Source of the DNA: a virus
Taxonomy: Duplodnaviria > Caudoviricetes
Direction: 5' to 3' (one strand)
Length of the DNA: 30,659 nt
IMG/VR virus record: IMGVR_UViG_3300027142_000034
Span: 1-30,659 of that record
The stretch's first letter is position 1; each line of letters opens with the position of its first letter. A model generated the notes under the pieces. The model was not told where the DNA came from. It saw nothing but the letters and a program-made list of their open reading frames with translations, and made no database searches. Below are positions 2,772 to 19,945 of the stretch, one piece after another. Position numbers and translations under genes: made by a program.

Positions 2772-3238
2772 TTAATCTGTTCTGGAACGAATGTGTTCCA
2801 TTCTGGTGAAGTGTTAGTAACATACTGGTTCTTACACTTGTCAAATGCACCCTTTGGTGCTGGGCAGAACCAACCTTTATATGGTCTGCCATCTTTACCC
2901 ATACCTTGAATCGCTGTCATCTTTCCATGTGGACATGAACGGCCACCAATTGTAGGTGTTGGTGCTGGCTGTGTATATTCTTGGGCAGGAATTGTTGTTC
3001 CTGTTTCAATGATGTTGCCACCTAATGCTGCGGCAACTACTTGTGCAGACATAACTGGTGCTGCTGGTGTTGATGCACCACGCACTGCTGCTTCTAGTTC
3101 TGTTGCTGCTGATGCAATCGCTGCGATTGAATGTGCAACTACATTGTCTAGTTCTTCTCCGCTTTCTGCACGGACTGTAACAAGACTACCTGCTGGTGTC
3201 TTAACTGTGATACTGATTGGTGCTTCTGTACTAGGCAC
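2768..3238 (-). CDS. Replication/recombination-associated protein with C-terminal Zn-ribbon (GRF-like)
   Basis: CPHG-x-YKGWFCP-x-C at the C-terminus after an Ala/Pro linker; GTG 3238 preceded by AAGGAG. Confidence 0.6.
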   Translation of the reverse strand: MPSTEAPISITVKTPAGSLVTVRAESGEELDNVVAHSIAAIASAATELEAAVRGASTPAAPVMSAQVVAAALGGNIIETGTTIPAQEYTQPAPTPTIGGRSCPHGKMTAIQGMGKDGRPYKGWFCPAPKGAFDKCKNQYVTNTSPEWNTFVPEQIK

Positions 3239-4013
3239 TATCTTCTCCTTGCTCAAATGGAGTAGCCAAACCCTTTTGGTCTCGCCACTTTCTTACTTTC
3301 ATTGCAAATTGTACACCTTTCCATCCTTCTTGGATGTCAATCCATACTAACTTGCAAGTTCCTGTCCCTGCTGGGGCATGAATGATGATTGCTTTTTCTT
3401 TATTGATGTCGCCCCATGTGCCACGGGTCGCCGTATCTATCATGTACGGCGAGCCGTTGGCGTAGATTGCTAATTGCATAGCAATATTATTTGGATGGTC
3501 AATGCGACCTGTCTTTAGGTCTGCAATAAACCTTTCGCCTTTATATTCAACAACTCTATCTGGTGTACCAGCAATTTTAAACTTGTCTAGTACTGTAAAT
3601 TGTTCGATGTAAAGTTTAGTAAGTATGCTAGTTGCTTTTTGGTATGCAAGAATGTCTGGCATCCATTGTTCTGGTACTGCACCTAACTCTAAACCTAAGT
3701 CTAGTTTTTCTGTTAACGCATGGATTGCTGTACCAATTGTTGCTGCTTTACTAGCACCTGCTGCATCCATTGCTTCTTCGATATATGCATTAACCAACTT
3801 GTTATCATCTGCTGCTACACCAATGGCTAGTAATAGGTCTGGTCTACTTGTTAAACCTATTGCTGCCATACGCATCTTCCATGCTGTTAATGCTGATGCA
3901 TCATCAAGACTGTTGGCTATTGTGGTAGCACGCGTATATGCAATTGCTTTGCCACCTTTAGGGGGAACGACTAACGGTCTTCCGTATCTATCTCTTTCAA
4001 TTTCTACTGGCAT
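3231..4013 (-). CDS. PD-(D/E)XK exonuclease (RecE/RecB-nuclease-like)
   Basis: GTAIH, IEQ, AGTPDR, IADLKTG and QLAIYA motifs; ATG 4013 preceded by AAGGAG. Confidence 0.82.
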   Translation of the reverse strand: MPVEIERDRYGRPLVVPPKGGKAIAYTRATTIANSLDDASALTAWKMRMAAIGLTSRPDLLLAIGVAADDNKLVNAYIEEAMDAAGASKAATIGTAIHALTEKLDLGLELGAVPEQWMPDILAYQKATSILTKLYIEQFTVLDKFKIAGTPDRVVEYKGERFIADLKTGRIDHPNNIAMQLAIYANGSPYMIDTATRGTWGDINKEKAIIIHAPAGTGTCKLVWIDIQEGWKGVQFAMKVRKWRDQKGLATPFEQGEDSA

Positions 4014-4032
4014 ACATCTCCTTGTTATTAGT

Positions 4033-4112
4033 GTCCCGTGTTCGCAGATGGCGGGACCACCCATCCCCAAGTCTAACACATAGTAGAAATGAACAAACGC
4101 CTATGTGTTAGA
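4033..4112 (-). promoter_or_regulatory. Structured mRNA leader: 12-bp hairpin plus H-type pseudoknot upstream of the exonuclease RBS
   Basis: Perfect inverted repeat TCTAACACATAG (4072-4083) / CTATGTGTTAGA (4101-4112). The minus strand then reads GATGG-gtg-GTCCCG-CCATC-tgcgaaca-CGGGAC (4065-4033). Confidence 0.55.
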
Positions 4113-4132
4113 TAGCGCATGATTGATGGTGG

Positions 4133-4573
4133 TTATTCCCGTTCGATTTCGCTTATACTTACATCGTGGCTGTCAATGTCTAAGTCGTAGCCGCTGACTT
4201 CGATATTGTCATTAATAATATCTTCGGCTTCCTCTTTAGAGGTAGCCTTGATACCAGTAATGTTAACTGTAATCTCTACAGTTGCACACCAAGTTGTAGT
4301 AAGCATGTCTGAACCAATTGATTCAAGCAATGCGTTAACCTCATCGCGTGTAACAGTTGTTTCATCCTCATCAACAGAACCATCAAATGCTTCTGTAAAG
4401 TAGGCATGTACTTCAGTACGTACCTTCATTAGTTTTCTATATGCTTCTTGTGCTTCAGTAGATACTGCATCTAGCCTACGCTTAGTTGCAATGTCTGTCT
4501 TGATTAGTTCCTTCAATGATTCTTCAGTGAAGTTATAGGTTGTGCCATCTACTGTAATTGGGTTTAAGTACAT
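4133..4573 (-). CDS. Hypothetical acidic protein (146 aa)
   Basis: ORF with AAGGAG RBS; coiled-coil-like N-terminal half. Confidence 0.75.
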   Translation of the reverse strand: MYLNPITVDGTTYNFTEESLKELIKTDIATKRRLDAVSTEAQEAYRKLMKVRTEVHAYFTEAFDGSVDEDETTVTRDEVNALLESIGSDMLTTTWCATVEITVNITGIKATSKEEAEDIINDNIEVSGYDLDIDSHDVSISEIERE

Positions 4574-4581
4574 GTTGCTCC

Positions 4582-5529
4582 TTAGATTCCGACTAGTTCT
4601 AGTGCTCGTAGTTTAATGCCATCATTGCGCCCTGCAAGGGTAGCAATACTAGCATCTTTCTGAGAGTAGTGGTCAGCATATTCAACTACTGCTTGCCATA
4701 AACCAAACTCTGTATGACGGATGTTCTCTTGTGTTGGGCTATCTGAATAGATAGCAAATGCTTTCTGCCGTGCATTGAGGGCACGGGACTTGGCATTCTT
4801 TTCACCCTTGCTGAGTAGGTGTAGAGGTGCGTTCTCAATTTTAGATGGTAGAGCCCACACTTTCTTGAAGTACTCAGTTGCTTTGTTGATGTCTGCCTCA
4901 CGCTGTAATAGATGGTTAGCAAGATTACTATACGCATCAATACTTGTGTAAGTCAAGTCAAGGATGTTTCGCATATCGGATACTGATAACACTGAGTTTT
5001 GTGTATGACGCAGTGTGTATGTGTGCGCTTTGTTCTTGGCACGATAGATACGATTGATTTGGTTGGCACACCACAATCGTTCGATGATAGGACGGATGAC
5101 CACTGATGATGAACCATCATGACTAGTCTTGGCTAGTAAGAAGGCTGCGTGTGGGTCGCCCTTGATTTCCATTTCTTTTGGTAGTGACATAAGCATCCAT
5201 ACTTTTGCGCCACCATCATACTCACCTGCTGCTGCATAGCGAGCATCACCTGAATCAATTAAGCCGTCAAGGCAGCCAAAGACTTCTTGGTTTTGGAAGA
5301 CTTTGTATTTGCTACCTACTACGCCAATGACTGACTCATTTCCATTTGCTTTTTTTACGACTGCTTGCTTGTTCGGTACATGCAAGAAGTCAGATGTATG
5401 CATATCAGATAAACCAACAGTCCAATTAAGTCCTGCTTGTTCTGCTACCTGTGCTGCACTACTTGCTTCTACTGCTACGCCAGCCTTTTGCCAGGCTGAG
5501 CGGTTCTTCGCTACATTTGCTGTAGTCAT
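4582..5529 (-). CDS. DUF932/DUF945 family phage/plasmid protein
   Basis: AGLNWTV, GVVGSKYKVFQN, SHDGSSS, RLWCANQ, RHT and WQAVVEYADH motifs. Confidence 0.88.
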   Translation of the reverse strand: MTTANVAKNRSAWQKAGVAVEASSAAQVAEQAGLNWTVGLSDMHTSDFLHVPNKQAVVKKANGNESVIGVVGSKYKVFQNQEVFGCLDGLIDSGDARYAAAGEYDGGAKVWMLMSLPKEMEIKGDPHAAFLLAKTSHDGSSSVVIRPIIERLWCANQINRIYRAKNKAHTYTLRHTQNSVLSVSDMRNILDLTYTSIDAYSNLANHLLQREADINKATEYFKKVWALPSKIENAPLHLLSKGEKNAKSRALNARQKAFAIYSDSPTQENIRHTEFGLWQAVVEYADHYSQKDASIATLAGRNDGIKLRALELVGI

Positions 5530-6038: not shown

Positions 6039-6539
6039 TTAGATACCCATTCCTTCTTTAACTCTTGGATGTAGTTCGTGTGTCATAGCAACAAACGCAC
6101 CTGATGGCCAGCCTGAAGTAAAGACACGGTTAAGTAGATTTGCTAGTGAGTAACTAGGATTATGAACTAGCGCAGTACTAAGAAGTTCTTTAGCAGAATC
6201 TACTTCTTCTAGTGCGTATAGATTTGCAGCCAACACACTTGCAATAGGTGCAATGAACTTAGTAGGAACTGAGTCCATAAAGTATGCAAGGTATCCATTA
6301 ACATCTTCAATCTTGCGCTCAGATGGCAGACCTAATACAAAGTCACGCAACTGAATGTCTTTCTGTAATGCTGCTGCAATCTCTGCAATATGGTCATTAT
6401 CTGGTGCTGTGCCTGAATCAACCTGTGTATAGATAGCGTCAGTTAAACGCTTGCGTTGTGTTAGTAGTTGTTCTTCTTTATCATTCTCACCCAATAGGAT
6501 GTTGTAGTAGTTTTCGATTTCTTCTAGTGTTACTGTCAT
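6039..6539 (-). CDS. DUF4192-like protein (actinobacterial family)
   Basis: DIQLRD and AL-x-NPSYSLANLL-x-GWP resemble the DUF4192 C-terminal region. Confidence 0.65.
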   Translation of the reverse strand: MTVTLEEIENYYNILLGENDKEEQLLTQRKRLTDAIYTQVDSGTAPDNDHIAEIAAALQKDIQLRDFVLGLPSERKIEDVNGYLAYFMDSVPTKFIAPIASVLAANLYALEEVDSAKELLSTALVHNPSYSLANLLNRVFTSGWPSGAFVAMTHELHPRVKEGMGI

Positions 6540-6560
6540 TTCTTTCTCCTTAGTTTGTTG

Positions 6561-6974
6561 TTAGTACCAGCCATTGGTACGCCAATGCGACCAAGCAACT
6601 GATGGTTTCTCGTAGCGGTGCTGGATATAAGCCAGCCCCCGCTCAATCTGAAGCGGGGCTGGCGTTGATGGGTCGAGGTTAAGCAACTGTGGAATACCAA
6701 ATGCAGAACTGTTTGGGTTATCTGCTGCTGGATTCCATGCTGATTCTTTACCCCATAGTTTCATGAGTGCTCGATGTTCCGATAAGTTCCATTCGGGGTA
6801 TGCCAACTTCATGAACTGTCTTGCATATAATTTCAGAGCGCGAGGAGTCCAATGGAACTCGCTCATCTCCGTAGGTTTTGGTTCTGTATGTGCCTGTGCT
6901 AGTGGCATGTGCCACGGTAGCATTGACAAGAATGCTACATACCATGCTGTAAGCAGTGCGAATAGTTTCTTCAT
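6561..6974 (-). CDS. Secreted lytic transglycosylase (SLT/lysozyme-like fold)
   Basis: Signal-peptide-like N-terminus; catalytic KESAWNP, AFGIPQ, QIERGLAYIQHRY and C-terminal GWY. Confidence 0.85.
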   Translation of the reverse strand: MKKLFALLTAWYVAFLSMLPWHMPLAQAHTEPKPTEMSEFHWTPRALKLYARQFMKLAYPEWNLSEHRALMKLWGKESAWNPAADNPNSSAFGIPQLLNLDPSTPAPLQIERGLAYIQHRYEKPSVAWSHWRTNGWY

Positions 6975-7066
6975 TTAGTAACCCATCTGTAGAGGATATA
7001 GAAAACTGTAATGAGGAAGAGCCATGACTGTAATGGTGTGAGAGGGAGGAATGTAATGTCATTCAT
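6971..7066 (-). CDS. Membrane micro-protein (31 aa), absent from the ORF track
   Basis: MNDITFLPLTPLQSWLFLITVFYILYRWVTK; ATGA overlap with the transglycosylase start. Confidence 0.6.
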   Translation of the reverse strand: MNDITFLPLTPLQSWLFLITVFYILYRWVTK

Positions 7067-7163
7067 CTCCCCACATCCTGTCTGGTTCTTGGTAACCATC
7101 ATCCTCTTCTTCTGTGTCTTTGTCTAGTGCTATATCATCTTCAAGTGGTGGTTCATAGGTCAT
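7059..7163 (-). CDS. Highly acidic micro-protein (34 aa), absent from the ORF track
   Basis: MTYEPPLEDDIALDKDTEEEDDGYQEPDRMWGDE; AAGGAG upstream; overlaps both neighbours. Confidence 0.6.
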   Translation of the reverse strand: MTYEPPLEDDIALDKDTEEEDDGYQEPDRMWGDE

Positions 7164-7251
7164 CTTCTTCTATCTCCTTTAGCATCTCATTTAGTATGGG
7201 CTGTACTGCTAGGGCTGCTTTGTCTAATGCTTCCTGTAGTTCTTTACTCAT
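7153..7251 (-). CDS. Helical micro-protein (32 aa), absent from the ORF track
   Basis: MSKELQEALDKAALAVQPILNEMLKEIEEDDL; overlaps the XRE stop and the next start. Confidence 0.55.
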   Translation of the reverse strand: MSKELQEALDKAALAVQPILNEMLKEIEEDDL

Positions 7252-7528
7252 TGTCGTATCTTTCTTTGTATTCCATTAATCTTTTATGATGCATTCTCAT
7301 AAGTAATTGTGTTGGCTCTTTTTCTTTTACTAATGATTCAATAGATATATCGTACCTATTGCATAGAAGTATTAGGTTTTCAAGGGTAGGTTTTCTATCT
7401 CCTCTTTCCCAACTTCCTAATGTTACTGCGGTTATCTGTGCAATTTTAGATGCTTCACTTAATGTTAAACCTTTGGCTTGTCTTACTTGTCGTAATCTTT
7501 TACGCACTGTTCTATAGGTTGGATTCAT
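7244..7528 (-). CDS. XRE-family helix-turn-helix regulator
   Basis: LRQVRQAKGLTLSEAS...TLGSWERGDRKPTLENL. Confidence 0.88.
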   Translation of the reverse strand: MNPTYRTVRKRLRQVRQAKGLTLSEASKIAQITAVTLGSWERGDRKPTLENLILLCNRYDISIESLVKEKEPTQLLMRMHHKRLMEYKERYDNE

Positions 7529-7656
7529 TCTTCTTCCACATAGATGCGTCCTGTTGCCATCATCTCTTCCAAGATATTGTTGGCTGCTTTGAGACTGAGT
7601 ATTGCTTTGTCAATGGACTCGTTCAAGTCCGCTATTTCATGAACTGTGTATGACAT
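7525..7656 (-). CDS. Small helical protein (43 aa), absent from the ORF track
   Basis: MSYTVHEIADLNESIDKAILSLKAANNILEEMMATGRIYVEEE; AGGAG RBS; ATGA overlap with XRE. Confidence 0.7.
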   Translation of the reverse strand: MSYTVHEIADLNESIDKAILSLKAANNILEEMMATGRIYVEEE

Positions 7657-7786
7657 CTGTTGCTCCTAACTTAGACCAAGCACACGCTTGGCAATAGTTC
7701 CTAGCGTGTGCTTTATTTATATCTACTACTATTGCTATCCCACATTGGTAGCAATCAAATGTTTGATACTTTACTTGGTTGTCCAT
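7637..7786 (-). CDS. Small Zn-ribbon protein (49 aa), absent from the ORF track
   Basis: MDNQVKYQTFDCYQCGIAIVVDINKAHARNYCQACAWSKLG...; two CxxC motifs; AAGGA RBS. Confidence 0.65.
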   Translation of the reverse strand: MDNQVKYQTFDCYQCGIAIVVDINKAHARNYCQACAWSKLGATDVIHSS

Positions 7787-7974
7787 AGGTCTTCCTTTGC
7801 TATGTCTGGGTCATAGTAGAAGTTCCGCCCCTGCTTTTCTATTCTTAAAGCACGGCGCAGATTCATATTGTCTCGATGCAATATAGCATTCTGTCTGATT
7901 GCTAGTGTAATAAGTATGATACTTGTAGACATTGCAATAATCAATGCCAGTATATCTCCTGCTTCTAATAACAT
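7771..7974 (-). CDS. Single-pass membrane protein (67 aa)
   Basis: Start reassigned to ATG 7974 (GAAAGG RBS); hydrophobic ILALIIAMSTSIILITLAI. Confidence 0.7.
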   Translation of the reverse strand: MLLEAGDILALIIAMSTSIILITLAIRQNAILHRDNMNLRRALRIEKQGRNFYYDPDIAKEDLWTTK

Positions 7975-8038
7975 TTTGTTACCTTTCTGATTAGATGGAC
8001 TCGCGGTATTCCGTAGTAGGTACATGGCCCTCCACGAT

Positions 8039-8079
8039 AAAAAGAAAAGGCAGGTGAGAGCCGAAGCCCCCACCTGCCT
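8039..8079 (-). terminator. Intrinsic terminator
   Basis: Minus strand reads AGGCAGGTGGGGGC-TTCG-GCTCTCACCTGCCT followed by TTTCTTTTTT (cUUCGg tetraloop), just after the SSB-like stop. Confidence 0.9.
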
Positions 8080-8085
8080 GAGTCT

Positions 8086-8400
8086 TTATGCTTGTGATAC
8101 GGATGTAAGTACTACCTGCTTAAGGCCTGGCTTACGGTCTTTGTTATCAATGTTTGGACGGCGGTCCCAGCGTGTGTTACCGATGCCTTCTGCGTTGATG
8201 TATGCAGTTGAATCTGCGAGCCAGTTAAGTTCTCGTAGTTGTGTAATTACATTCTCATCGAAGATAACTACACGTGTAGAGTCAGAGCAAATTTGGCGCC
8301 CTGTTGGTAGTTGTTCGTAGTCGTTGATGGTTGCTGTGTAGAAACCATTGCGGTCAACAACATTCTTGATAACGCTGTTCTTGAATGTGACTGTGTTCAT
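8086..8400 (-). CDS. Putative OB-fold single-stranded DNA-binding protein
   Basis: 104 aa with an SSB-like strand pattern (RVVIFD...YINAEG.GNTRWD...KQVVLTSV) and a strong A-rich RBS; lacks an acidic tail. Confidence 0.55.
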   Translation of the reverse strand: MNTVTFKNSVIKNVVDRNGFYTATINDYEQLPTGRQICSDSTRVVIFDENVITQLRELNWLADSTAYINAEGIGNTRWDRRPNIDNKDRKPGLKQVVLTSVSQA

Positions 8401-8432
8401 TTTGTTTCCTTTTCTGTTGGTAGTGTTGTTGT

Positions 8433-8469
8433 GCAGACCTGCTCCTGCACTTGTTCAGAGCAGGTCTGC
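8433..8469 (-). promoter_or_regulatory. Perfect 12-bp hairpin in the SSB-like gene leader
   Basis: GCAGACCTGCTC (8433-8444) / GAGCAGGTCTGC (8458-8469), 13-nt loop, A/C-rich unstructured flanks on the minus strand, no U-tract. Confidence 0.6.
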
Positions 8470-8478
8470 TTTGGATTG

Positions 8479-8841
8479 TTAGTTACAACTTGGACATACA
8501 GCGTGCTTATTGCATACCATGTGGCAGTCTTGGCACACGGTCTCATGTGGACCTAAGTCCACAACCAGTTCAAAGAACCTGTCGGATAGGTTGGTGACAG
8601 GTTCCATAAACTCGTTTCGTTCCTTTTCGTCGTTGTCAATGGTTACAGCACCTACCCAGTCGTGGCCAGATGGGCTGTCAACCCTATGCATGGGACGGTC
8701 GTATTGGTCACTGTTTTCGTCTACTAGGTCATGGGCGATGTTGGTCGCCCGTGAATCTCGTAGGTCTTGGCAGTCTACGCATAGTTCCATCTGAATCATG
8801 CACTGGTAGCATGGGTTGGAGACAGTCAGTTCATCAGACAT
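8479..8841 (-). CDS. Cys-rich early protein with two putative Zn-binding modules
   Basis: CYQC-x6-CVDC at the N-terminus and CQDC-x9-CPSC at the C-terminus; GAAAGG RBS; first gene of the left arm. Confidence 0.75.
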   Translation of the reverse strand: MSDELTVSNPCYQCMIQMELCVDCQDLRDSRATNIAHDLVDENSDQYDRPMHRVDSPSGHDWVGAVTIDNDEKERNEFMEPVTNLSDRFFELVVDLGPHETVCQDCHMVCNKHAVCPSCN

Positions 8842-8859
8842 TGTACTTTCCTTTCTTTA

Positions 8860-9161
8860 ACCTGATACACGCGATAACCTCTCGGTTCAGGATTACGCCA
8901 CTTTGAATCATGGCAGTCATCGGATAGCGCATTCTTGCGCTAGACGCGGGGCGTGGCTGGACTGCGAGCCTGCGAGCAGGCGCACATTCATGGGCGCTCC
9001 AGACACGGCGTTGCGGGGATTCCGCAACGAGTAGTCCTGTTGCGCTTATGAGTTAGCCCCCTTCCGCCGAATAGGCGGGAGGTGCGGGATAACGAATGCA
9101 ATAGGACTTGACAAACATGATACAAGGCGCGTAGTCCTGAGAGAGAGGATTCTGTTCAGGT
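8860..9161 (+). other. ~300-nt branched secondary-structure element (candidate ssDNA promoter/origin or structured ncRNA)
   Basis: Imperfect inverted repeat 8860-8919 / 9109-9161 enclosing hairpins 8925-8942, 8944-8954, 8957-9002, 9009-9029 and 9033-9108. Mismatches are mostly G.T on the plus strand. Confidence 0.65.
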
Positions 9162-9666
9162 CAGGCATTCTGGAGTGAGTACAGCACTGCCAAGTGTGGC
9201 TGCATGGAATGCTGACGCACTGCAGTCGGCTGACGGAACGGGCAGGTGAGGGGTTGCCATTGCCAAGGCTGAAACTATTTTTATTTAGTATGAAACAAAT
9301 AGTTATCTGACTGGGGCGCAGACATCTGGTCAAGCCCGCAGACTGCTAGCCGTAACAGGACCCACTGTACAGGACAGTAGAGCGGCAGCATTAAACAGTC
9401 TGTGGGTCTGTAAGACCCCAGAGTGTTTAATAGTCTTTCTAACCTGTAGTAGTATCTGCCATAAAAATATTTCCGTACAACAGTGCCCCTGATACAGGCA
9501 TTACTTAACAGTTTTTGGCAAATAAAAAATATTTTAAAATAAACCGTTCGGAATGGCTGTTTGAACGGGTTAATACTATATAGAGAGTATTTATTATTAC
9601 AGTAGCAAGTCTCTTAAAGACTTGCGTTACAGACTGTATCTACTGTCTGTTACAACTGACTGTAAC
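9160..9666 (+). other. Hairpin-dense non-coding region upstream of terminase (candidate genome end/packaging/late control region)
   Basis: Stems at 9160-9216, 9223-9313, 9273-9304, 9335-9406 or 9390-9431, 9544-9568, 9572-9591, 9605-9625, 9629-9650 and 9649-9666. Confidence 0.55.
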
Positions 9667-9687
9667 TATTGTAGATGGGACCATTCT

Positions 9688-11574
9688 GTGACTTTTCAAA
9701 AGGGGTCTAATAACCCTCAAAGTACCGCGCTGGCAGAGGCAAAACGTAAAGTTTTAGCCCTTGTAGCAGAGGGTATGTCGCCTAAAAAGGCGATGGAGAA
9801 TCTGGGCAAAAAGCCAGATACCATCCGAATCTGGATGCTTAGGGATAAAGAGTTTGCCGCCGATTTAGAGCAGGCTTTGCAGGATGCAAAGTCCAACTCA
9901 ATCAAGGCGTTGGGCATCGCAAAGGAGGAAATCACCTTTCCTCAGTTTAGCGAGATGTTCCTTGACCAGAGGGTGTTTCCACACCATATGGACTGGGTGG
10001 ACTTGCTAGAGGATAGACCCCCTTCTTGGCTCCATGATAATATGATTTACGAGCCTGGGGATAAAACCCGCCTCCTGATTAACGTGCCACCAGAGCACGC
10101 CAAAAGTACGGTCATTACCGTCAACTACTCAACTTATCGTATCGCCCTCAACCCTAACATCCGCATCATTGTGGTTAGTAAGACGTTGAACAAAGCACGC
10201 GAGTTCGTGTACGCAATCAAGCAAAGACTATCCCACCCGCGCTGGACAAAGTTGCAAACAACTTTTGGTCCTGAAGGGGGCTGGAAAGAAGACTCAGATA
10301 CTTGGCGAGTTGATACCGTTTACCTTGGGGGCGATGCGAGAAACTCAAGCGAAAAGGACCCTACCCTTCAGGCATTGGGTATGGGTGGTCAGATTTACGG
10401 TGCACGTGCTGACCTGATTATCCTTGACGACTGTATTACTACGGCTAACGCCCATGAGTTCGATAAGCAGATTGACTGGCTACAAAAAGAAGTTATTACC
10501 CGTTTGGGTAAGAACGGTAAGTTATTAATTGTTGGGACGAGAATTGCCACGCAAGATTTCTATAAAGAGTTACGTGACCCAAAGTATTGGTCAGGCGGTA
10601 AGTGTCCTTTTACGTACATGGGCATGCCTGCTGTTTTGGAGTATAGTGAAAAGCCAGATGACTGGGTTACTCTTTGGCCGAAGTCAGACCTACCGTGGGA
10701 CGGGGATGACGAAACCCCAGACGAGCAAGGACTCTTTCCCAAGTGGGATGGACAAGCCCTTGCCAAAAGACGCGGAGAAGTAACTCCCACTACATGGGCT
10801 TTGGTTTACCAGCAGGAGGATGTCGCAGAAGATTCTATCTTCCCACCCGCCCTGGTTCAAGCCTGTATCAAAGGAACACGTAAGCGTGGTATCTTGAAAC
10901 CAGGCGCGGTGGGACATCCGACTCAGGTTGAGGGATACACCATCATTGGTTTTGACCCTGCTATGGCAGGTAATGCAGCATTTGTTGCTGTTACTTATAA
11001 CAGGTCAGATTCTAAAATATACGTTTTAGACTGCATTAATATGGGAGACCCTACTCCGCAAAAGATTCGTAACACAATCGAAGAGTTGGTTTTAAAGTAT
11101 AAACCACAAGAGTTTCGTGTTGAGATTAACGCTCACCAGAAAGCCTACTCTCTAGATGATGATTTGCGTCAATGGCTATCCTCCTATGGAGTACGCCTAG
11201 AAGCGCACCACACAAATAAAAACAAGTGGGATACAAACTTTGGTGTTGCATCTATGTCAACACTGTTTGGAACCATGCGAGATAATAAGTTCCAAGGCAA
11301 TAACACTATTGAAATTGCATCTACTGATGGTTCAGAGGGCATGAAAGCATTAGTGCAGCAGTTGATTACATGGAAAGCAAATACCCGTGGCAAGACCGAC
11401 TGTGTTATGGCGCTATGGTTTGCGGTTATTCGCGCTAGAGAGTTTATGCAACAAACCTCATACATGAAGCGATACACCGAAAACCGCTGGACTACAAGAG
11501 CCCAGATGAATAGACGTGTATCAGTTAATTTAGACGAAGCCTTTGCAGAGCAATGGGCTGAGAACTACGGATAG
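9688..11574 (+). CDS. terL: Terminase large subunit with N-terminal HTH extension
   Basis: Walker A variant VPPEHAKS, Walker B LIILDD, coupling motif VGT, YQQ, nuclease IGFDPA and late D (TDCVMA). GTG 9688 is the likely start (GGGA upstream). Confidence 0.92.
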   Translation: MTFQKGSNNPQSTALAEAKRKVLALVAEGMSPKKAMENLGKKPDTIRIWMLRDKEFAADLEQALQDAKSNSIKALGIAKEEITFPQFSEMFLDQRVFPHHMDWVDLLEDRPPSWLHDNMIYEPGDKTRLLINVPPEHAKSTVITVNYSTYRIALNPNIRIIVVSKTLNKAREFVYAIKQRLSHPRWTKLQTTFGPEGGWKEDSDTWRVDTVYLGGDARNSSEKDPTLQALGMGGQIYGARADLIILDDCITTANAHEFDKQIDWLQKEVITRLGKNGKLLIVGTRIATQDFYKELRDPKYWSGGKCPFTYMGMPAVLEYSEKPDDWVTLWPKSDLPWDGDDETPDEQGLFPKWDGQALAKRRGEVTPTTWALVYQQEDVAEDSIFPPALVQACIKGTRKRGILKPGAVGHPTQVEGYTIIGFDPAMAGNAAFVAVTYNRSDSKIYVLDCINMGDPTPQKIRNTIEELVLKYKPQEFRVEINAHQKAYSLDDDLRQWLSSYGVRLEAHHTNKNKWDTNFGVASMSTLFGTMRDNKFQGNNTIEIASTDGSEGMKALVQQLITWKANTRGKTDCVMALWFAVIRAREFMQQTSYMKRYTENRWTTRAQMNRRVSVNLDEAFAEQWAENYG

Positions 11575-14866: not shown

Positions 14867-17800
14867 ATGCGCGTTTTAAAACCCATAGTCGCAGAAATGT
14901 CTCCGAACCTTTACTCAGCGGCACAACGAGCAAATCTTTTACCTGAAGAACAGAACCAACTTGAGCAAATGAGTTGGGCTGTTAAGAAGAATAAAGAACT
15001 TACTCGTATGAACTCAGCAGATGCTCGCAAGGTATTTGAGAGTCTTGACCCTGATGCACAAGAGGGATTAAAGTTTTTTTATAAAGATGCTGACTACATG
15101 CAAGCACCACCAGATTTTGGTGACCGTGCTGTTGGTGCATTAAAGTTTGCTGGCAAAACTGTTGCTAGTCCTTTGATTGCAGTCTTTAAAGTTGCTGGTG
15201 CTTACAACCGTGCTATCAATACGCCATACTTGGTGGGCCGTCAAGTAGCACAGGGCGAGAATATCTTTAGTGCTAACGTTTGGTCTGATGCTTGGAACGG
15301 TACAGATGTCTACGATAACGGTGCTTTAAAAGAAGCAACAGACCGTTTTGGTAAAGCAAATGTATATATTGCAAAAGGATTGCTAGCAGGTAAGCGTCCA
15401 GGAGAAATCCTAGAAGCATATGGAGAACTTACTCCTGAGATTGCTAAAGCCTTTGAGGTTGCATTTAATGAACCAGAAGAGTTTAAGCAAGTTTTAGATG
15501 CAACCAAGTACGCACAGGTTTCTTTAGGTCGTGACGTTGCACGTATGCTAGATACCAAGCCACCAAAAAATGGTGCGCTTGCTGGTGACTACATTGACGG
15601 AACAACTAAGAACATCTCTGGCGTTATTGATTTTGCATACCAGATTGTAATTGACCCATTTACTTGGATTACTGGTGGTGCATCTGGTGCTGCTAGAAAA
15701 GGTTCTCAGTTAGCGCAGATGGTTACTGATGCTGCTCAGTCAGGAAATGTTGGCTATGGAGTATCCCGTGCTTTTAAAGATAAGGGAGTGCAGACTCTTT
15801 GGAATGACCAACTTGGTCCAGCCATTGAGAAGTTGTCTAAGGCAGAGACGGTTGCAGAGCGTGCAAAGATTCGCCGTGCAATTGGTAAGTTAACTCCTGG
15901 CTACAACAATGATGAAGCAATTGCTTTCTTGGAAAGAAACAAAGTCTTTAATGCAGATGAAGCCGAAAAGGTTTTTAGTGATGCAGAAAATACTTATTTG
16001 CTTTTATCTGGTCGTGTAGATGGTATTACCTATCGCCGTAATGGTATAGCCGTTGCTCGTACTAATCGCCGTTTGAGTGATGGATTTAATAACATGCTTG
16101 ATTCTGTTTTTAACAAAACAGTATCTAAGCAAAACATTGATGAGTTTAACGCTAAAGGCGAAGAGGCTTTTGATATTTTATTAAAGTCTGGTGAAAACTC
16201 AGACAAGGCTTTTAACCCAAACATTACAGACCTTGTAAAAATTGAAGATGACATCAAGGGTCTCAAGCGCATTGCGCTTAAGGCTGGTCGTCTTGCAGCA
16301 CGAAACCCAGCAGGTCAGCAGATTCTTATTGGTGAAGAAGCAGTCAAGACAATTGACACAGTAAGACTTGTTGCACGACAGGTTGTTAATCGTGACATGG
16401 CTGATTTTATTGCTCAAAAGTTTTTGCGTTCCTCTGAAGATGAGCAAGTAGTTATTGTTCGTAATCTATACGCAGCAGTTATGCAGCGTGCAGGTTTGGC
16501 TGGAGACCCTAACGGCGAAAAGTTAATGCATGATATTCTTAAAAGAACTCTTAATGAACGTGCTGGTTTTACAACTACAGTTAAGACTGAGATTGATGCA
16601 CCTTTTTCAAAGGTAATGAGCAAGAATGCTGTTAAGTATGAGAATGAAACGCCACTACTTGCAGGTTCTTCTGCAATTCAGCCATCTCAGTTAGCAGGAG
16701 CCATTGCTCCGCTACCTTATGAGCAGATTGCACTTGAGGCTAATACAATTCGTTCAAAGAAAAACCTACTAGTTGCTGCAATGGGTACTCCTAACAGCAA
16801 ACTTGCTAAGGATTTTGTAGACTTTTGGTCTATTTTTACTTTGTTCCCACGTTTAGGTGTACGTTCAGCCATTGATGAAGGTTTTATGTATGCATTAACA
16901 GCCCCAGCAAGAGATTTACTTGACTTTACTAAGGGTGTTGGACGTAAGTTAAACAAGTCTGGTATGGCATACACAGCATCTAATGCATCTCAAGGCCCTA
17001 TTGCAGAACTTTTAAGAAAAAGTTTTAAAAGAAACCCAGCAGACTTGCTTGGAATTGAAGCACGTAATGAAATTATTGAAGCAATTGCTAAGCGTGAAAA
17101 AGTTTCTATTGCCGAAGTCAGCCATCTTAAGATTAATCAAGAGATTGCTGAAAGAGCAAATGTATTTATTCGCAATTTAGACCCTGCTGAGCGTGATTAC
17201 TGGACACAGGCTATGGTCTATCACCCAGATTTGCTCAACTCAATGGCACAGTCTATTGCTGCTCGCACAACCCTTGGTGGAAAACTAGACCAAGAGATTA
17301 TTGCTGAGCAGTTAAACATTAGTAAGTTAACTGAAGCCCTTAATACAATTGGTAAAGAAGCAACTGGCAAACGATTTAAGTTTGGTAAGTATCAAGAGAT
17401 TGAAGTAGACAAACTACGTGCTGCTGGTGATGATTTTGTTACCCTTGCTCACTATGATAACTGGTTTATCCGCTTTGCTACTCCACGCCAACACGGTAAG
17501 TTAAAACTACCAGGGCAATACAGGGTATCTCCTGCAGTTGCATTTTTTGCAAACAATGGACTTGAGACTCCAGATGATTTAGTCCGTGCAGTAGATGGAA
17601 TGATGACTCGTCTAGGTATGACTAAGGAGAATGAGTTCTGGAAGGTTGCAGATGAAGCGCAACCAGCACTCAAGAAGTTTCTTTCATACTTTGGAGATAC
17701 AGTTTACTGGCGTCAAAAGGGATTAGGTGATGAAGACATTGCCCAAATTTACTTTGAGCGCATGCTTATGGATTTACGCGATAACTTCCATGGTGGTCCA

Positions 17801-19945
17801 CGTTTATATAACAAAGAACTAATGGACACAGTTAAGACAAACTATGAAAAGTTGTTAATCATCCAGGATGAAACAGGCCGTGCCATTAACGACAAGTGGA
17901 TGAAGGCTGCTAATCAAATTAGCATCGAAGAGTTTGCGGATGTAACAAAAGGATTCCAACCAACTGGTTATATTAATACACGTGTTGAGTTTCCAGACTT
18001 TACGGATGTAGAGACAGCATGGAAGCGTAGCGGTAACAACATGATGGAACTTATGGACCGTCAAGTTAACGGTATTCTACGTAGTCCTGTTGTTAATATA
18101 TCTTATCTGCACCTACGTAAGAACTATTCTGGTATTGAACGAGAGTATGCAGATAACATAGTTAAGAAAGCATTACGCGATAATCCTGATAGTTATGGTT
18201 TGCCTTGGCAAAAAGCGCAACTAGAACGCCGTGCTACAGAGTTGGCTGAAAAAAGATTTACAGAATTAGCAATGGAAGAAGCAGCAGACACAGTACTAAA
18301 GTTTGCTGATAACCCAGGAATCCGTTCTAATTTTGCGGTATCTGTTCGCACAGTTGGTCGTTTCTACCGTGCAACAGAGGACTTTTATCGCCGTATCTAC
18401 CGTCTTAAAGATGTAGCACCACGGGTTCTTTACCGTATGCGCCTAGCGCATCTTGGTTTAAATGCTAGCGGTATGTTCTATGAGGACAGCGAAGGTGCAC
18501 CATACATCATGATGCCTATGGATAATATTATCTTTAAGGCAACAGATACTACTATTCGTACTCTTACTGGTAATACAGATAGTGAGTACAAGCAGCCTTT
18601 GTTTAATGACTTTACTATGAAGTTAACTTTGGCTAACCCATCCTTTTCACCAGAAGCGGGTCTACCTACATTCTCTGGTCCTATTGCAGCATTAAGCGCT
18701 ATTGGTATACGTAATATACTAGGAACAGTAGATAGTCCTGCAATTCAAAAGGTTGGTCAAGAAATTGACAACATGGCCCTTGGCCCAATTGGAGACAACA
18801 TTGATATTGCTAGAGCGATTATCCCGTCTACTCTTCTCAAGATTTACCAAACCTTACCCGTCAACGAAAAGTCCAGACAAGAAGTAACAGCAGCACAGCA
18901 AGCAATTGCATACAATGCTGCTAATGGTAAGTATCTAGAGCCTAATGCTACAGATGAAGAGAAGTATAAGTACATAAAGAACATACGTATCTCAGCACAT
19001 AATGTGATGGTAATGCGTTCAGTTCTAGGACTTATCTCACCAGTTGCTCCTACAGTTCAGGAATCTCAAGGAGTTCCTTCGTATCTACTAGACGTAGGAA
19101 TCACAGGATTGCGTAATGAGTTCTGGGATATTTATGAGGCTGTCTATAAGAAGTATGGCGATGATGTTCAAGACCCATACGAGCAGGCACTTGTTATTTT
19201 TACTGGTAAGTATCCAGGAAAGATTGCTTATACAGTAGCCCGTGATACCAAGCAGACTAAAGTTCTTATCTCTAAAACTGGAGATATGAAGAACTGGTCT
19301 TTGGCTAATAAGAAGTTTATTGATACTTATGGCGAATCTGCTTACATCTTTGGTCCTCATACTGGTGACTTTAATGCTGGTGTGTATAACTGGATGCAGG
19401 CATCAGGACTGCTAGAGGATAAGAAACTAGAACAGTACTACGATGATGTATTAGTTGCTGAAGATAAGCAGAAATACTTTGATGTAGCATCATGGGAAAA
19501 GCAGTCATTGGCTACTGAAACCCGTATATCTGAGCGTAAGTTTATTATTGATTCTGCAACTACTGCTCGTAAACAATTACTTGCTTCTAATCCATTATTG
19601 CTAGGTGCTATTACTGGTGGTGGTAATGAAATTGCAACTGAAGAGCGCATGCTTCGCAGCCTAAAGCAAGTAGTTGTTGATAACTCTGATGCTGTTTCTT
19701 CTGGAACAAAGATGAAGTTAAAGGTTGCTATTCAGGCAATGGAAGATTTTATTGCCCTTGCTAATGATGAAGAAGTACGTGGTTTGTATAATGCATCTCA
19801 GATTAAACGTGATACACGCACAAGTGTAGAGGCTCTTCTTAGCCAACTTGGTAGCCAGGATTACGCAATTAAAGAAGCAACAAAAGCAATATTCAATTCA
19901 ATCTTGAAATACTATTCAAGAGATACTTATAGCGCGAGGGTGTAA
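14867..19945 (+). CDS. Large putative internal virion (ejection) protein, 1692 aa
   Basis: Very long, mostly helical ORF in the structural operon, without tape-measure repeats; function inferred from size and context. Confidence 0.6.
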   Translation: MRVLKPIVAEMSPNLYSAAQRANLLPEEQNQLEQMSWAVKKNKELTRMNSADARKVFESLDPDAQEGLKFFYKDADYMQAPPDFGDRAVGALKFAGKTVASPLIAVFKVAGAYNRAINTPYLVGRQVAQGENIFSANVWSDAWNGTDVYDNGALKEATDRFGKANVYIAKGLLAGKRPGEILEAYGELTPEIAKAFEVAFNEPEEFKQVLDATKYAQVSLGRDVARMLDTKPPKNGALAGDYIDGTTKNISGVIDFAYQIVIDPFTWITGGASGAARKGSQLAQMVTDAAQSGNVGYGVSRAFKDKGVQTLWNDQLGPAIEKLSKAETVAERAKIRRAIGKLTPGYNNDEAIAFLERNKVFNADEAEKVFSDAENTYLLLSGRVDGITYRRNGIAVARTNRRLSDGFNNMLDSVFNKTVSKQNIDEFNAKGEEAFDILLKSGENSDKAFNPNITDLVKIEDDIKGLKRIALKAGRLAARNPAGQQILIGEEAVKTIDTVRLVARQVVNRDMADFIAQKFLRSSEDEQVVIVRNLYAAVMQRAGLAGDPNGEKLMHDILKRTLNERAGFTTTVKTEIDAPFSKVMSKNAVKYENETPLLAGSSAIQPSQLAGAIAPLPYEQIALEANTIRSKKNLLVAAMGTPNSKLAKDFVDFWSIFTLFPRLGVRSAIDEGFMYALTAPARDLLDFTKGVGRKLNKSGMAYTASNASQGPIAELLRKSFKRNPADLLGIEARNEIIEAIAKREKVSIAEVSHLKINQEIAERANVFIRNLDPAERDYWTQAMVYHPDLLNSMAQSIAARTTLGGKLDQEIIAEQLNISKLTEALNTIGKEATGKRFKFGKYQEIEVDKLRAAGDDFVTLAHYDNWFIRFATPRQHGKLKLPGQYRVSPAVAFFANNGLETPDDLVRAVDGMMTRLGMTKENEFWKVADEAQPALKKFLSYFGDTVYWRQKGLGDEDIAQIYFERMLMDLRDNFHGGPRLYNKELMDTVKTNYEKLLIIQDETGRAINDKWMKAANQISIEEFADVTKGFQPTGYINTRVEFPDFTDVETAWKRSGNNMMELMDRQVNGILRSPVVNISYLHLRKNYSGIEREYADNIVKKALRDNPDSYGLPWQKAQLERRATELAEKRFTELAMEEAADTVLKFADNPGIRSNFAVSVRTVGRFYRATEDFYRRIYRLKDVAPRVLYRMRLAHLGLNASGMFYEDSEGAPYIMMPMDNIIFKATDTTIRTLTGNTDSEYKQPLFNDFTMKLTLANPSFSPEAGLPTFSGPIAALSAIGIRNILGTVDSPAIQKVGQEIDNMALGPIGDNIDIARAIIPSTLLKIYQTLPVNEKSRQEVTAAQQAIAYNAANGKYLEPNATDEEKYKYIKNIRISAHNVMVMRSVLGLISPVAPTVQESQGVPSYLLDVGITGLRNEFWDIYEAVYKKYGDDVQDPYEQALVIFTGKYPGKIAYTVARDTKQTKVLISKTGDMKNWSLANKKFIDTYGESAYIFGPHTGDFNAGVYNWMQASGLLEDKKLEQYYDDVLVAEDKQKYFDVASWEKQSLATETRISERKFIIDSATTARKQLLASNPLLLGAITGGGNEIATEERMLRSLKQVVVDNSDAVSSGTKMKLKVAIQAMEDFIALANDEEVRGLYNASQIKRDTRTSVEALLSQLGSQDYAIKEATKAIFNSILKYYSRDTYSARV

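Follow-up and report, generated by a model that had tools for sequence, protein, structure and literature searches.

A candidate single-stranded-DNA promoter of Frpo-like design ahead of the early genes of a freshwater clade of tailed phages

Promoters that act on single-stranded DNA (ssDNA) have so far been described for conjugative plasmids, and Frpo of plasmid F reportedly goes back to Masai and Arai in 1997. Frpo1 and Frpo2 of F, the ssi of ColIb-P9 and the class 1-3 elements of pESBL, as described in PMC9849209, PMC11541004 and PMC12672017, have a long stem-loop on the template strand, in which -35 and -10 boxes are reconstituted ahead of the first-expressed genes, and a like pattern is predicted at the phage locus described here. 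These sources, together with bioRxiv 10.64898/2026.01.09.698686, indicate that such plasmid promoters are silenced upon conversion to duplex DNA. Early transcription of a dsDNA podovirus through a template-strand hairpin and SSB is likewise known for the virion RNA polymerase promoters of N4 (PMC13492108); the N4 hairpin is small and is read by a T7-like polymerase of the phage itself, whereas here sigma-type hexamers lie in a fold of 100-800 nt. The locus also differs from Frpo and ssi in belonging to a tailed dsDNA phage for which ssDNA transfer is not known and in which no conjugative context is seen, in its many unrelated interchangeable versions, including a class with a 6-8-nt spacer and giant mirror copies, and in a junction-assembled hexamer and a conserved mismatch at A-11. 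A literature search covering few subscription papers found no ssDNA promoter in a tailed dsDNA phage. Here it is proposed, with the balance of probability somewhat in its favour, that the element would be a Frpo-type ssDNA promoter for the ssb/DUF932/exonuclease early operon of a dsDNA phage; newly described are the clade-wide promoter anatomy, the contrast with the outgroup, the A-11 mismatch and the two spacer classes.

The window, meaning the whole 30,659-nt stretch that was analysed (IMG/VR record IMGVR_UViG_3300027142_000034), comes from a tailed phage whose replication genes run leftward and whose terL, portal and capsid genes run rightward. Its gene order is like that of Streptomyces phage Percastrophe (Beephvirinae; terL 44%), and, as in Percastrophe, the primase is split into two overlapping ORFs (645-1596). 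Neither a relaxase nor a DNA polymerase was found among the 42 window proteins scanned, the gene set being that of a tailed dsDNA phage, and Sigma70_r2 and WhiB were each not found in five of five clade genomes. The terL identity to the cultured Planktophila phages of PMC10202952 is 59% (two records), and from this relatedness an acI host is likely; a direct host link is absent because no terL relative was found in prokaryote genome contigs. The terminase large subunit (plus strand, ending at 11574; family scan, relatives) most likely starts at GTG 9688 and not at TTG 9622. Upstream of it there is a conserved TTGAACRGRYY block (9561..9585, plus strand), present in 58/74 clade and 23/43 outgroup regions, which is a candidate rightward (late) promoter for terL. 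Several perfect hairpins also precede the terL start within 9561-9690, and locus L008 has an extra 108 nt there.

The early genes run leftward on the minus strand. The first of them (8479..8841) encodes a Cys-rich protein of 120 aa that matched no family in the family scan, and its place is taken by other genes in loci L298, L348, L072 and L153. The second (8086..8400) is an SSB-fold (OB) protein by its predicted structure (pLDDT 90.9), for which the top structure matches are all SSBs. Further along are a PD-(D/E)XK exonuclease (3231..4079), with no PDB sequence match, and a DUF932/TIGR03299 protein (4582..5529), both assigned by family scan and clade comparison; the predicted model of the latter is poor (pLDDT 61) and gave no fold match, and a paper that mentions DUF932 gives no mechanism for it. 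The DUF932 gene, the exonuclease and a 146-aa gene occur in 6/6 clade genomes and 0/5 outgroup genomes and are absent in Percastrophe, a separate count for DUF932 giving 5/5 clade versus 0/5 outgroup genomes, and the three (3231-5529) may possibly form an ssDNA-processing module. The original prediction had noted ssb and DUF932-type genes here, as in plasmid leading regions, and both an SSB-fold gene and DUF932 are indeed in the early operon. The F leading region also has a DUF932 gene and ssb, the phage and F DUF932 proteins sharing 30% over 76 aa; from gene order and PMC9849209, the F gene would be ygeB, behind Frpo1. Hairpins are also present between the early genes, at 8433-8468, 8048-8079 and 7678-7712.

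The fold-back element lies at 8860..9161 on the plus strand, as delimited by folding, relatives and a read-run join, and has a core stem (8878-9148) and a five-loop head. The long interrupted stem with five sub-hairpins that had been read from the letters is real, and its named helices were found where the original prediction put them, namely ACCTGA/TCAGGT at the base (8860-8865/9156-9161), CCTCTC/GAGAGG (8878-8883/9143-9148), a helix with 12-nt arms (8887-8898/9129-9140), CTTTG/CAAGG (8901-8905/9123-9127), ATCATG/CATGAT (8907-8912/9116-9121) and GTCA/TGAC (8916-8919/9109-9112), all on the plus strand. The stem is capped by four arms, at 8921-8946, 8952-9007, 9009-9029 and 9033-9108; the second of these ends in two loops, which makes five terminal loops in all. 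Folded as DNA, the plus strand of 8860-9161 reaches -81.8 kcal/mol (z -9.1, 0/100 shuffles as good) and the minus strand -68.3 kcal/mol (z -6.6); folded as RNA, the values are -150.9 (z -8.8) and -125.5 (z -7.2), the plus strand being better with both parameter sets. The plus fold has 105 Watson-Crick and five G.T pairs, and the minus fold 105 and none. The basal helix is present in locus L302 and absent in L044, L101 and L348.

The 5' arm (8878..8919, plus strand), which according to folding and the register table is the predicted template strand, ends beside the RBS (AGAAAGGAA, 8848-8856) of the leftward gene whose ATG is at 8841 (RBS and start together 8839..8856, minus strand). The positions given earlier for TTGACA, TAGTCC, RBS and ATG are all correct; the reading of the two hexamers is what changes. 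TTGACA (9108..9113, plus strand), a -35-like hexamer, lies 7 nt from the conserved -10 and spans the point where the last arm meets the main stem, because its first T pairs with A9033 and TGAC with the 5' arm. The conserved -10 is the extended -10-like TG-A-TACAAG (9118..9126, plus strand), in which A9122 (A-11) is unpaired and faces A8906. This 7-nt spacer is outside sigma-70-type -35/-10 geometry, and current models do not permit it. TAGTCC (9132..9137, plus strand), which the original prediction had taken as the -10 at an 18-nt spacer, is fully paired and most likely mis-assigned: it is kept in near-identical copies only, while TAnnn(T) at 6-8 or 15-16 nt is what recurs across cassettes. 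The predicted +1 would be near 8895, or near 8883 were TAGTCC used, and TAGTCC may be a second site in the window, with a leader of then about 42 nt. A sigma-70 consensus scan of 6500-10000 gave six matches versus 6.0 by chance, the element not among them; five loose leftward promoter matches lie inside the early region of the window, and blastn searches with the region returned no useful match among phage and plasmid records.

In the freshwater clade, the element is part of a cassette located between the first leftward gene and terL. Relatives whose terL is 96-98% identical have different sequence in place of the cassette (8862-9256), an alternative one is joined at 8862 in the river run X9, and one and the same cassette stands ahead of different first genes and different late blocks in L298 and L348. 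It includes a second folded segment (9162..9256, plus strand) that differs among relatives. Unrelated cassette sequences share one design, with TTG(A/C)N and TAnnnT in the 3' arm and a 5' arm that leads to the RBS, and they take the form of simple hairpins, branched structures like that of the window, or giant fold-backs, of which there are eight. In the giant forms, the start of the first gene is mirrored by a 3' arm that is bulged and does not code, with 250-330 pairs by alignment. These giant fold-backs (L153, L167, L151, L163, L171, L209, L139 and L185) lie about 450-1300 nt before terL; the mirrored part comprises the RBS, the start codon and the initial portion of a gene that aligns with the SSB family, and the bulges are mostly on the coding-side arm and break the mirrored frame. 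On a terL tree of 53 rows, made as a quick tree only, the six outgroup rows are one side of a fully supported branch, and the short, long and giant labels (by spacer class and form) change 16, 13 and 8 times versus 17.6, 13.2 and 7.6 when shuffled. Clustering of the labels is thus no greater than that of shuffled labels, and the spacer classes are exchanged across the tree, even between identical terL. Additionally, an extra folded insert of about 250 nt is present in L026 (about 4100-4400), where it is flanked by GGCTGAAACTAT repeats, and also in L192; because this insert is common to distant relatives, the cassette is itself modular.

The comparisons used 83 clade regions, made non-redundant from 155 loci with terL of at least 70%, and 45 outgroup regions from 49, with per-locus promoter counts on 74 and 43 regions, respectively. 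On the plus strand of the 83 clade regions, TTG[AC][CT]N..TAnnnT peaks at spacers of 6, 7 and 8 nt (8, 12 and 9 matches) and again at 15 and 16 nt (8 and 12 matches), the shuffle means for these spacer counts being 3.3-4.7. Since automated first-gene detection was noisy, curation was manual: 44 elements were picked by eye, and 33 of them, non-independent as relatives, were retained for the register table. Those left out (L042, L195, L011, L141, L152, L156, L161, L168, L030, L031 and L163) were excluded mostly for weak or misplaced pairing partners. The curated elements comprise 21 with short and 12 with long spacers, the classes being 6-8 and 15-18 nt and about one helical turn apart. Canonical -35/-10 spacing is present in the long class only (12/33), and the conserved -10 of the window is at 7 nt.

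Pairing follows a common register around the -10. Its mean over all 44 picked elements is 0.84-0.92 at -16..-13, 0.77 at -12 and 0.43 at -11. In the curated set, -15 is Watson-Crick paired in 33/33 elements, with four pair types, -14 and -13 in 32/33 and -12 in 29/33. A-11 is mismatched in 26/33 and opposed by A in 14, G in 6 and C in 6, compared with 75/166 mismatched at other TA steps that follow three paired bases (p 5e-4, with non-independent rows). According to PMC1919498, melting probably nucleates at this A, and stable complexes form slightly better when it is mismatched. TG at -15/-14 is found ahead of the -10 in 21/33. T-7 is absent from TACAAG in the window and from seven other curated elements, of both short and long class, and L312 has the hairpin with the TA of the -10 absent. 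The predicted leader is 31-54 nt in 26/33 elements, 80-90 nt in three and, with unconfirmed start calls, 152-652 nt in four. The idea that the template strand of the early genes folds back into a promoter thus gains support from the conserved 3'-arm hexamers, the pairing kept despite differing sequences, the A-11 mismatch and the distance to the RBS.

The 3' arm could instead act in duplex DNA as an ordinary promoter that points right and serves a leader or small RNA; the inverted repeat would then be a regulator site or a divergent copy that has decayed. Long-class 3' arms do read as good rightward duplex promoters, such as TTGACG-16-TACAAT in L019, and some 5' arms show TTGACA-8-TA on the minus strand (L149, L162, L164 and L200). 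However, the 6-8-nt class has no -35 at normal distance and yet freely replaces the long class, the spacer positions co-vary between the arms, and the 5' arm differs precisely at -11. In addition, terL has its own conserved upstream block. This explanation would also leave the early genes promoterless, and it is the most improbable of those weighed here.

The contrast with the outgroup bears on how the early genes of the clade could be transcribed. In the 45 outgroup regions, the motif peaks on the minus strand at a spacer of 17 nt (16 matches versus 4.1 shuffled) and is evidently an ordinary leftward promoter, whereas the clade minus strand has 0 matches at that spacer. The outgroup early promoters (relatives of Planktophila phage E7, PMC10202952) share the position and the hexamer consensus with the clade element; they differ in lying on the minus strand with a 17-nt spacer and in requiring no fold. 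Leftward TTGACA-16/18-TAnnnT was found in 0/74 clade and 11/43 outgroup regions, as a count of motifs in sequence. With a looser -35, the numbers are 8/74 and 13/43; 32/43 outgroup regions are likewise without a leftward TTGACA promoter in the scanned stretch, and a duplex promoter that lacks a -35 or depends on an activator would escape the scans used. Under an automated fold-back rule, the plus strand scores in 50/74 and the minus strand in 23/74 clade regions, versus 12/43 and 6/43 in the outgroup; the plus strand has no such motif in 24/74 clade regions.

An ssi- or sso-like signal, at which RNA polymerase makes only a primer for the minus strand and the early mRNA starts elsewhere, would be expected to have the same promoter-like anatomy. 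According to the plasmid literature, Frpo transcripts also prime complementary-strand synthesis, the element seems to be near a genome end, and the non-canonical 7-nt spacer may suit a priming site. Against this stand the 5' arm, which is tied to the RBS by the 31-54-nt leader in most curated elements whatever the first gene, and the clade's lack of the ordinary leftward promoter of the outgroup. A signal for priming only is thus unlikely, and priming and mRNA synthesis are compatible.

It was also considered that the plus strand might encode a large structured non-coding RNA, to which the hexamers would either belong or be there by coincidence. Folding is equally significant with RNA parameters, covariation and a bias of G.U type fit RNA as well as DNA, and the many additional arms are not needed by a promoter. 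On the other side, Rfam 15 gave no covariance-model match at gathering score for the element (three chance-level hits), and a conserved A-11 mismatch would be meaningless in RNA. Such an RNA would also have no room for its own promoter, because the stem adjoins the RBS of the opposite gene and in eight relatives runs deep into the gene. The perfect hairpins of the cassettes have GNA triloops, 12 on the plus versus 3 on the minus strand (p 0.035), and not GNRA (1:3) or UNCG loops, in contrast to early coding DNA, where GNRA loops are 14:1 on the mRNA strand; the early-region hairpins of relatives likewise favour GNRA on that strand. GNA triloops are favoured in DNA, a preference for which a literature search found no source, and the cassette loops look DNA-type. 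A structured RNA is therefore quite improbable as the main function, and an ssDNA promoter is retained as the preferred reading.

The strand bias in non-Watson-Crick pairs, which the original prediction had used as an argument for the plus strand, holds in part. It is present in the window (G.T 5:0) and in the eight giant fold-back relatives (G.T:A.C 81:32, A.G:C.T 113:30), but several clade-wide counts of G.T versus A.C were non-significant, namely no-GU folding (28:32, folded on plus), local arm alignment (79:71) and two of three helix thresholds (62:59 and 9:6). Among five window-type copies, 94.7% of pair cells are kept. The five pairs in which both partners have changed all belong to the arms; the main stem, being invariant in these close copies, has no covariation there. 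One-sided changes that preserve pairing pass through plus-strand G.T, and compensation is seen in 18/41 pairs of a mixed-cassette alignment. With mixed cassette types, RNAalifold failed to recover the central main stem, which MAFFT had misaligned.

All four metatranscriptomes contain contigs on the early genes (up to 8825, 8653, 8700 and 8539) and on terL; none lies on 8826-9538, which DNA contigs span in runs X2 and X9. As the stops differ, depth is low and folded RNA is perhaps under-read, this gap was not counted for or against an RNA.

The likeness to Frpo of F, as originally claimed, applies to architecture and gene content and does not extend to sequence: the element has no similarity beyond chance to F Frpo1/2 or to plasmids, and it would work like Frpo by design without being a member of that sequence family. 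In F, too, the template strands form folds whose 5' arm is directed at the RBS. A consensus scan of F Frpo1/2, done blind to the published box positions, found no consensus hexamer pair. In the Frpo1 region of F (L350 11700-12033, template strand), the 3' arm has GTGACA-6-TAAACA, which resembles the short class; such a pair was not evident in the ColIb-P9 rows examined.

Sequence analysis supplied the fold, strand bias, hexamers, mismatch, RBS spacing and cassette exchange, from which a mechanism may be outlined. An exposed plus strand would fold, its 3' arm providing -35-like and -10-like hexamers with a mismatch ready at A-11; the host holoenzyme would bind the pre-melted -10, and leftward transcription of the 5' arm by host RNA polymerase would run through the first gene, starting with its RBS, and on through ssb, DUF932 and the exonuclease. 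Conversion to duplex would silence the promoter, and this transcript could at once serve as the primer for rebuilding the minus strand. In the short class, a start would need the pre-melted extended -10 or an adaptor, because the hexamer cannot be a normal -35. The short spacer would have about ten bases less than that of the long class, often a purine-rich internal loop, with helical phase kept; it may silence the 3' arm in duplex DNA, and an adaptor of the PafBC kind is conceivable. PafBC of mycobacteria likewise uses a canonical -10 with an upstream element closer than a -35 (PMC8635444), and the title of PMC11804915 states that ssDNA triggers PafBC. The PafBC motif, tGTCgg-N10-tAnnnT with its upstream part at -28..-23, acts on duplex DNA, whereas here TTGAC is at about -25..-20 in a fold-back; the elements differ from the PafBC motif in both letters and spacing.

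The ssDNA might arise by 5'-to-3' resection on entry or by incomplete lagging-strand synthesis, either of which would leave a plus-strand 3' tail; the relevant background is host AdnAB-type resection and the entry order of podoviruses. This origin of the ssDNA, with the element about 300 nt from the right virion end, is the most speculative part of the proposal. In the Percastrophe record, a 264-bp terminal repeat ends about 400 nt before terL. Among 29 distinct clade contigs truncated 100-1000 nt before terL, 10 start at the equivalents of 9305-9348, and 2 of the 15 early-gene contigs examined end at 9456-9462; these contig ends are a weak hint of a terminal repeat, and so of the virion DNA ends, of about 150 bp at 9305..9460, and assembly breaks beside a variable region could yield an identical pattern. 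With a repeat there, the distance between the -10 and the right end would be about 330 nt, and the plus strand would be the one that has its 3' end there. The end of the Percastrophe repeat, aligned to the window, was non-significant (72 versus 66.8 +/- 5.2).

An ssDNA phase is so far not known for these phages, and this fits a cruciform-like extrusion from supercoiled or transcription-opened duplex, with an N4-like trigger and the host polymerase. Early promoters of N4 are supercoil-extruded hairpins aided by SSB, according to PMC13492108. Extrusion here would presumably cost many base pairs because the stem is long, bulged and branched, and the 1692-aa virion-region protein (14867-19945), which has 32-60% identity among clade genomes and is possibly an ejection protein, matched no family or polymerase and had unnamed look-alikes only. 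Extrusion is accordingly very improbable as the trigger. For promoter firing on ssDNA, a wider scenario can be offered tentatively: a widespread clade of acI-actinobacteria dsDNA podoviruses may have given up its ordinary early promoter for a fold-back one that fires only once the entering genome end has become single-stranded, host resection thereby switching on infection. A majority of the curated versions may then have a junction-assembled TTGACA one helical turn nearer the pre-melted -10, a new geometry that would be inactive in duplex DNA and used by host polymerase either by itself or through an adaptor. If true, there would be an unrecognised single-stranded step early in infection of these phages, and lytic commitment would be set by the state of the DNA and not by a repressor. 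The dozens of unrelated natural versions (short, canonical and giant) are also a mutational series for RNA polymerase on folded DNA.

Other recurrent structures were observed in the cassettes. A CGTGGC...GACACG motif with a G.A mismatch is present in the window at 8952-9007 and 9193-9222, often with several copies per cassette in relatives; at 8952..9007 (plus strand) it forms an arm with a 4-bp/G.A internal-loop motif (CGTGGCT...AGACACG). Its counts are 41/74 on the plus and 12/74 on the minus strand of clade regions, 2/43 in the outgroup and 4 and 6 of 65 in coding controls, and it is possibly a protein-binding or stabilising DNA motif. The L004 type (L004, L047, L063, L079 and L195) has a first domain with TTG hexamers at both 7 and 15 nt and a second fold-back domain, in which TTGACC with TA at 8 and 18 nt resembles the double -10 of the window. 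The L004 and L048 types can be explained by a -35 hidden in their last arm at 16-18 nt; for the window type this explanation fails. The spacer of the simple long-class hairpins in L039, L072, L077, L194 and L213, and similarly in L030 and L031, is taken up by an internal loop rich in purines, in which GAAGGGAA faces GGAATGAA; the two sides are swapped in L030. With this loop removed, the 16-nt spacer becomes one of about 7 nt.
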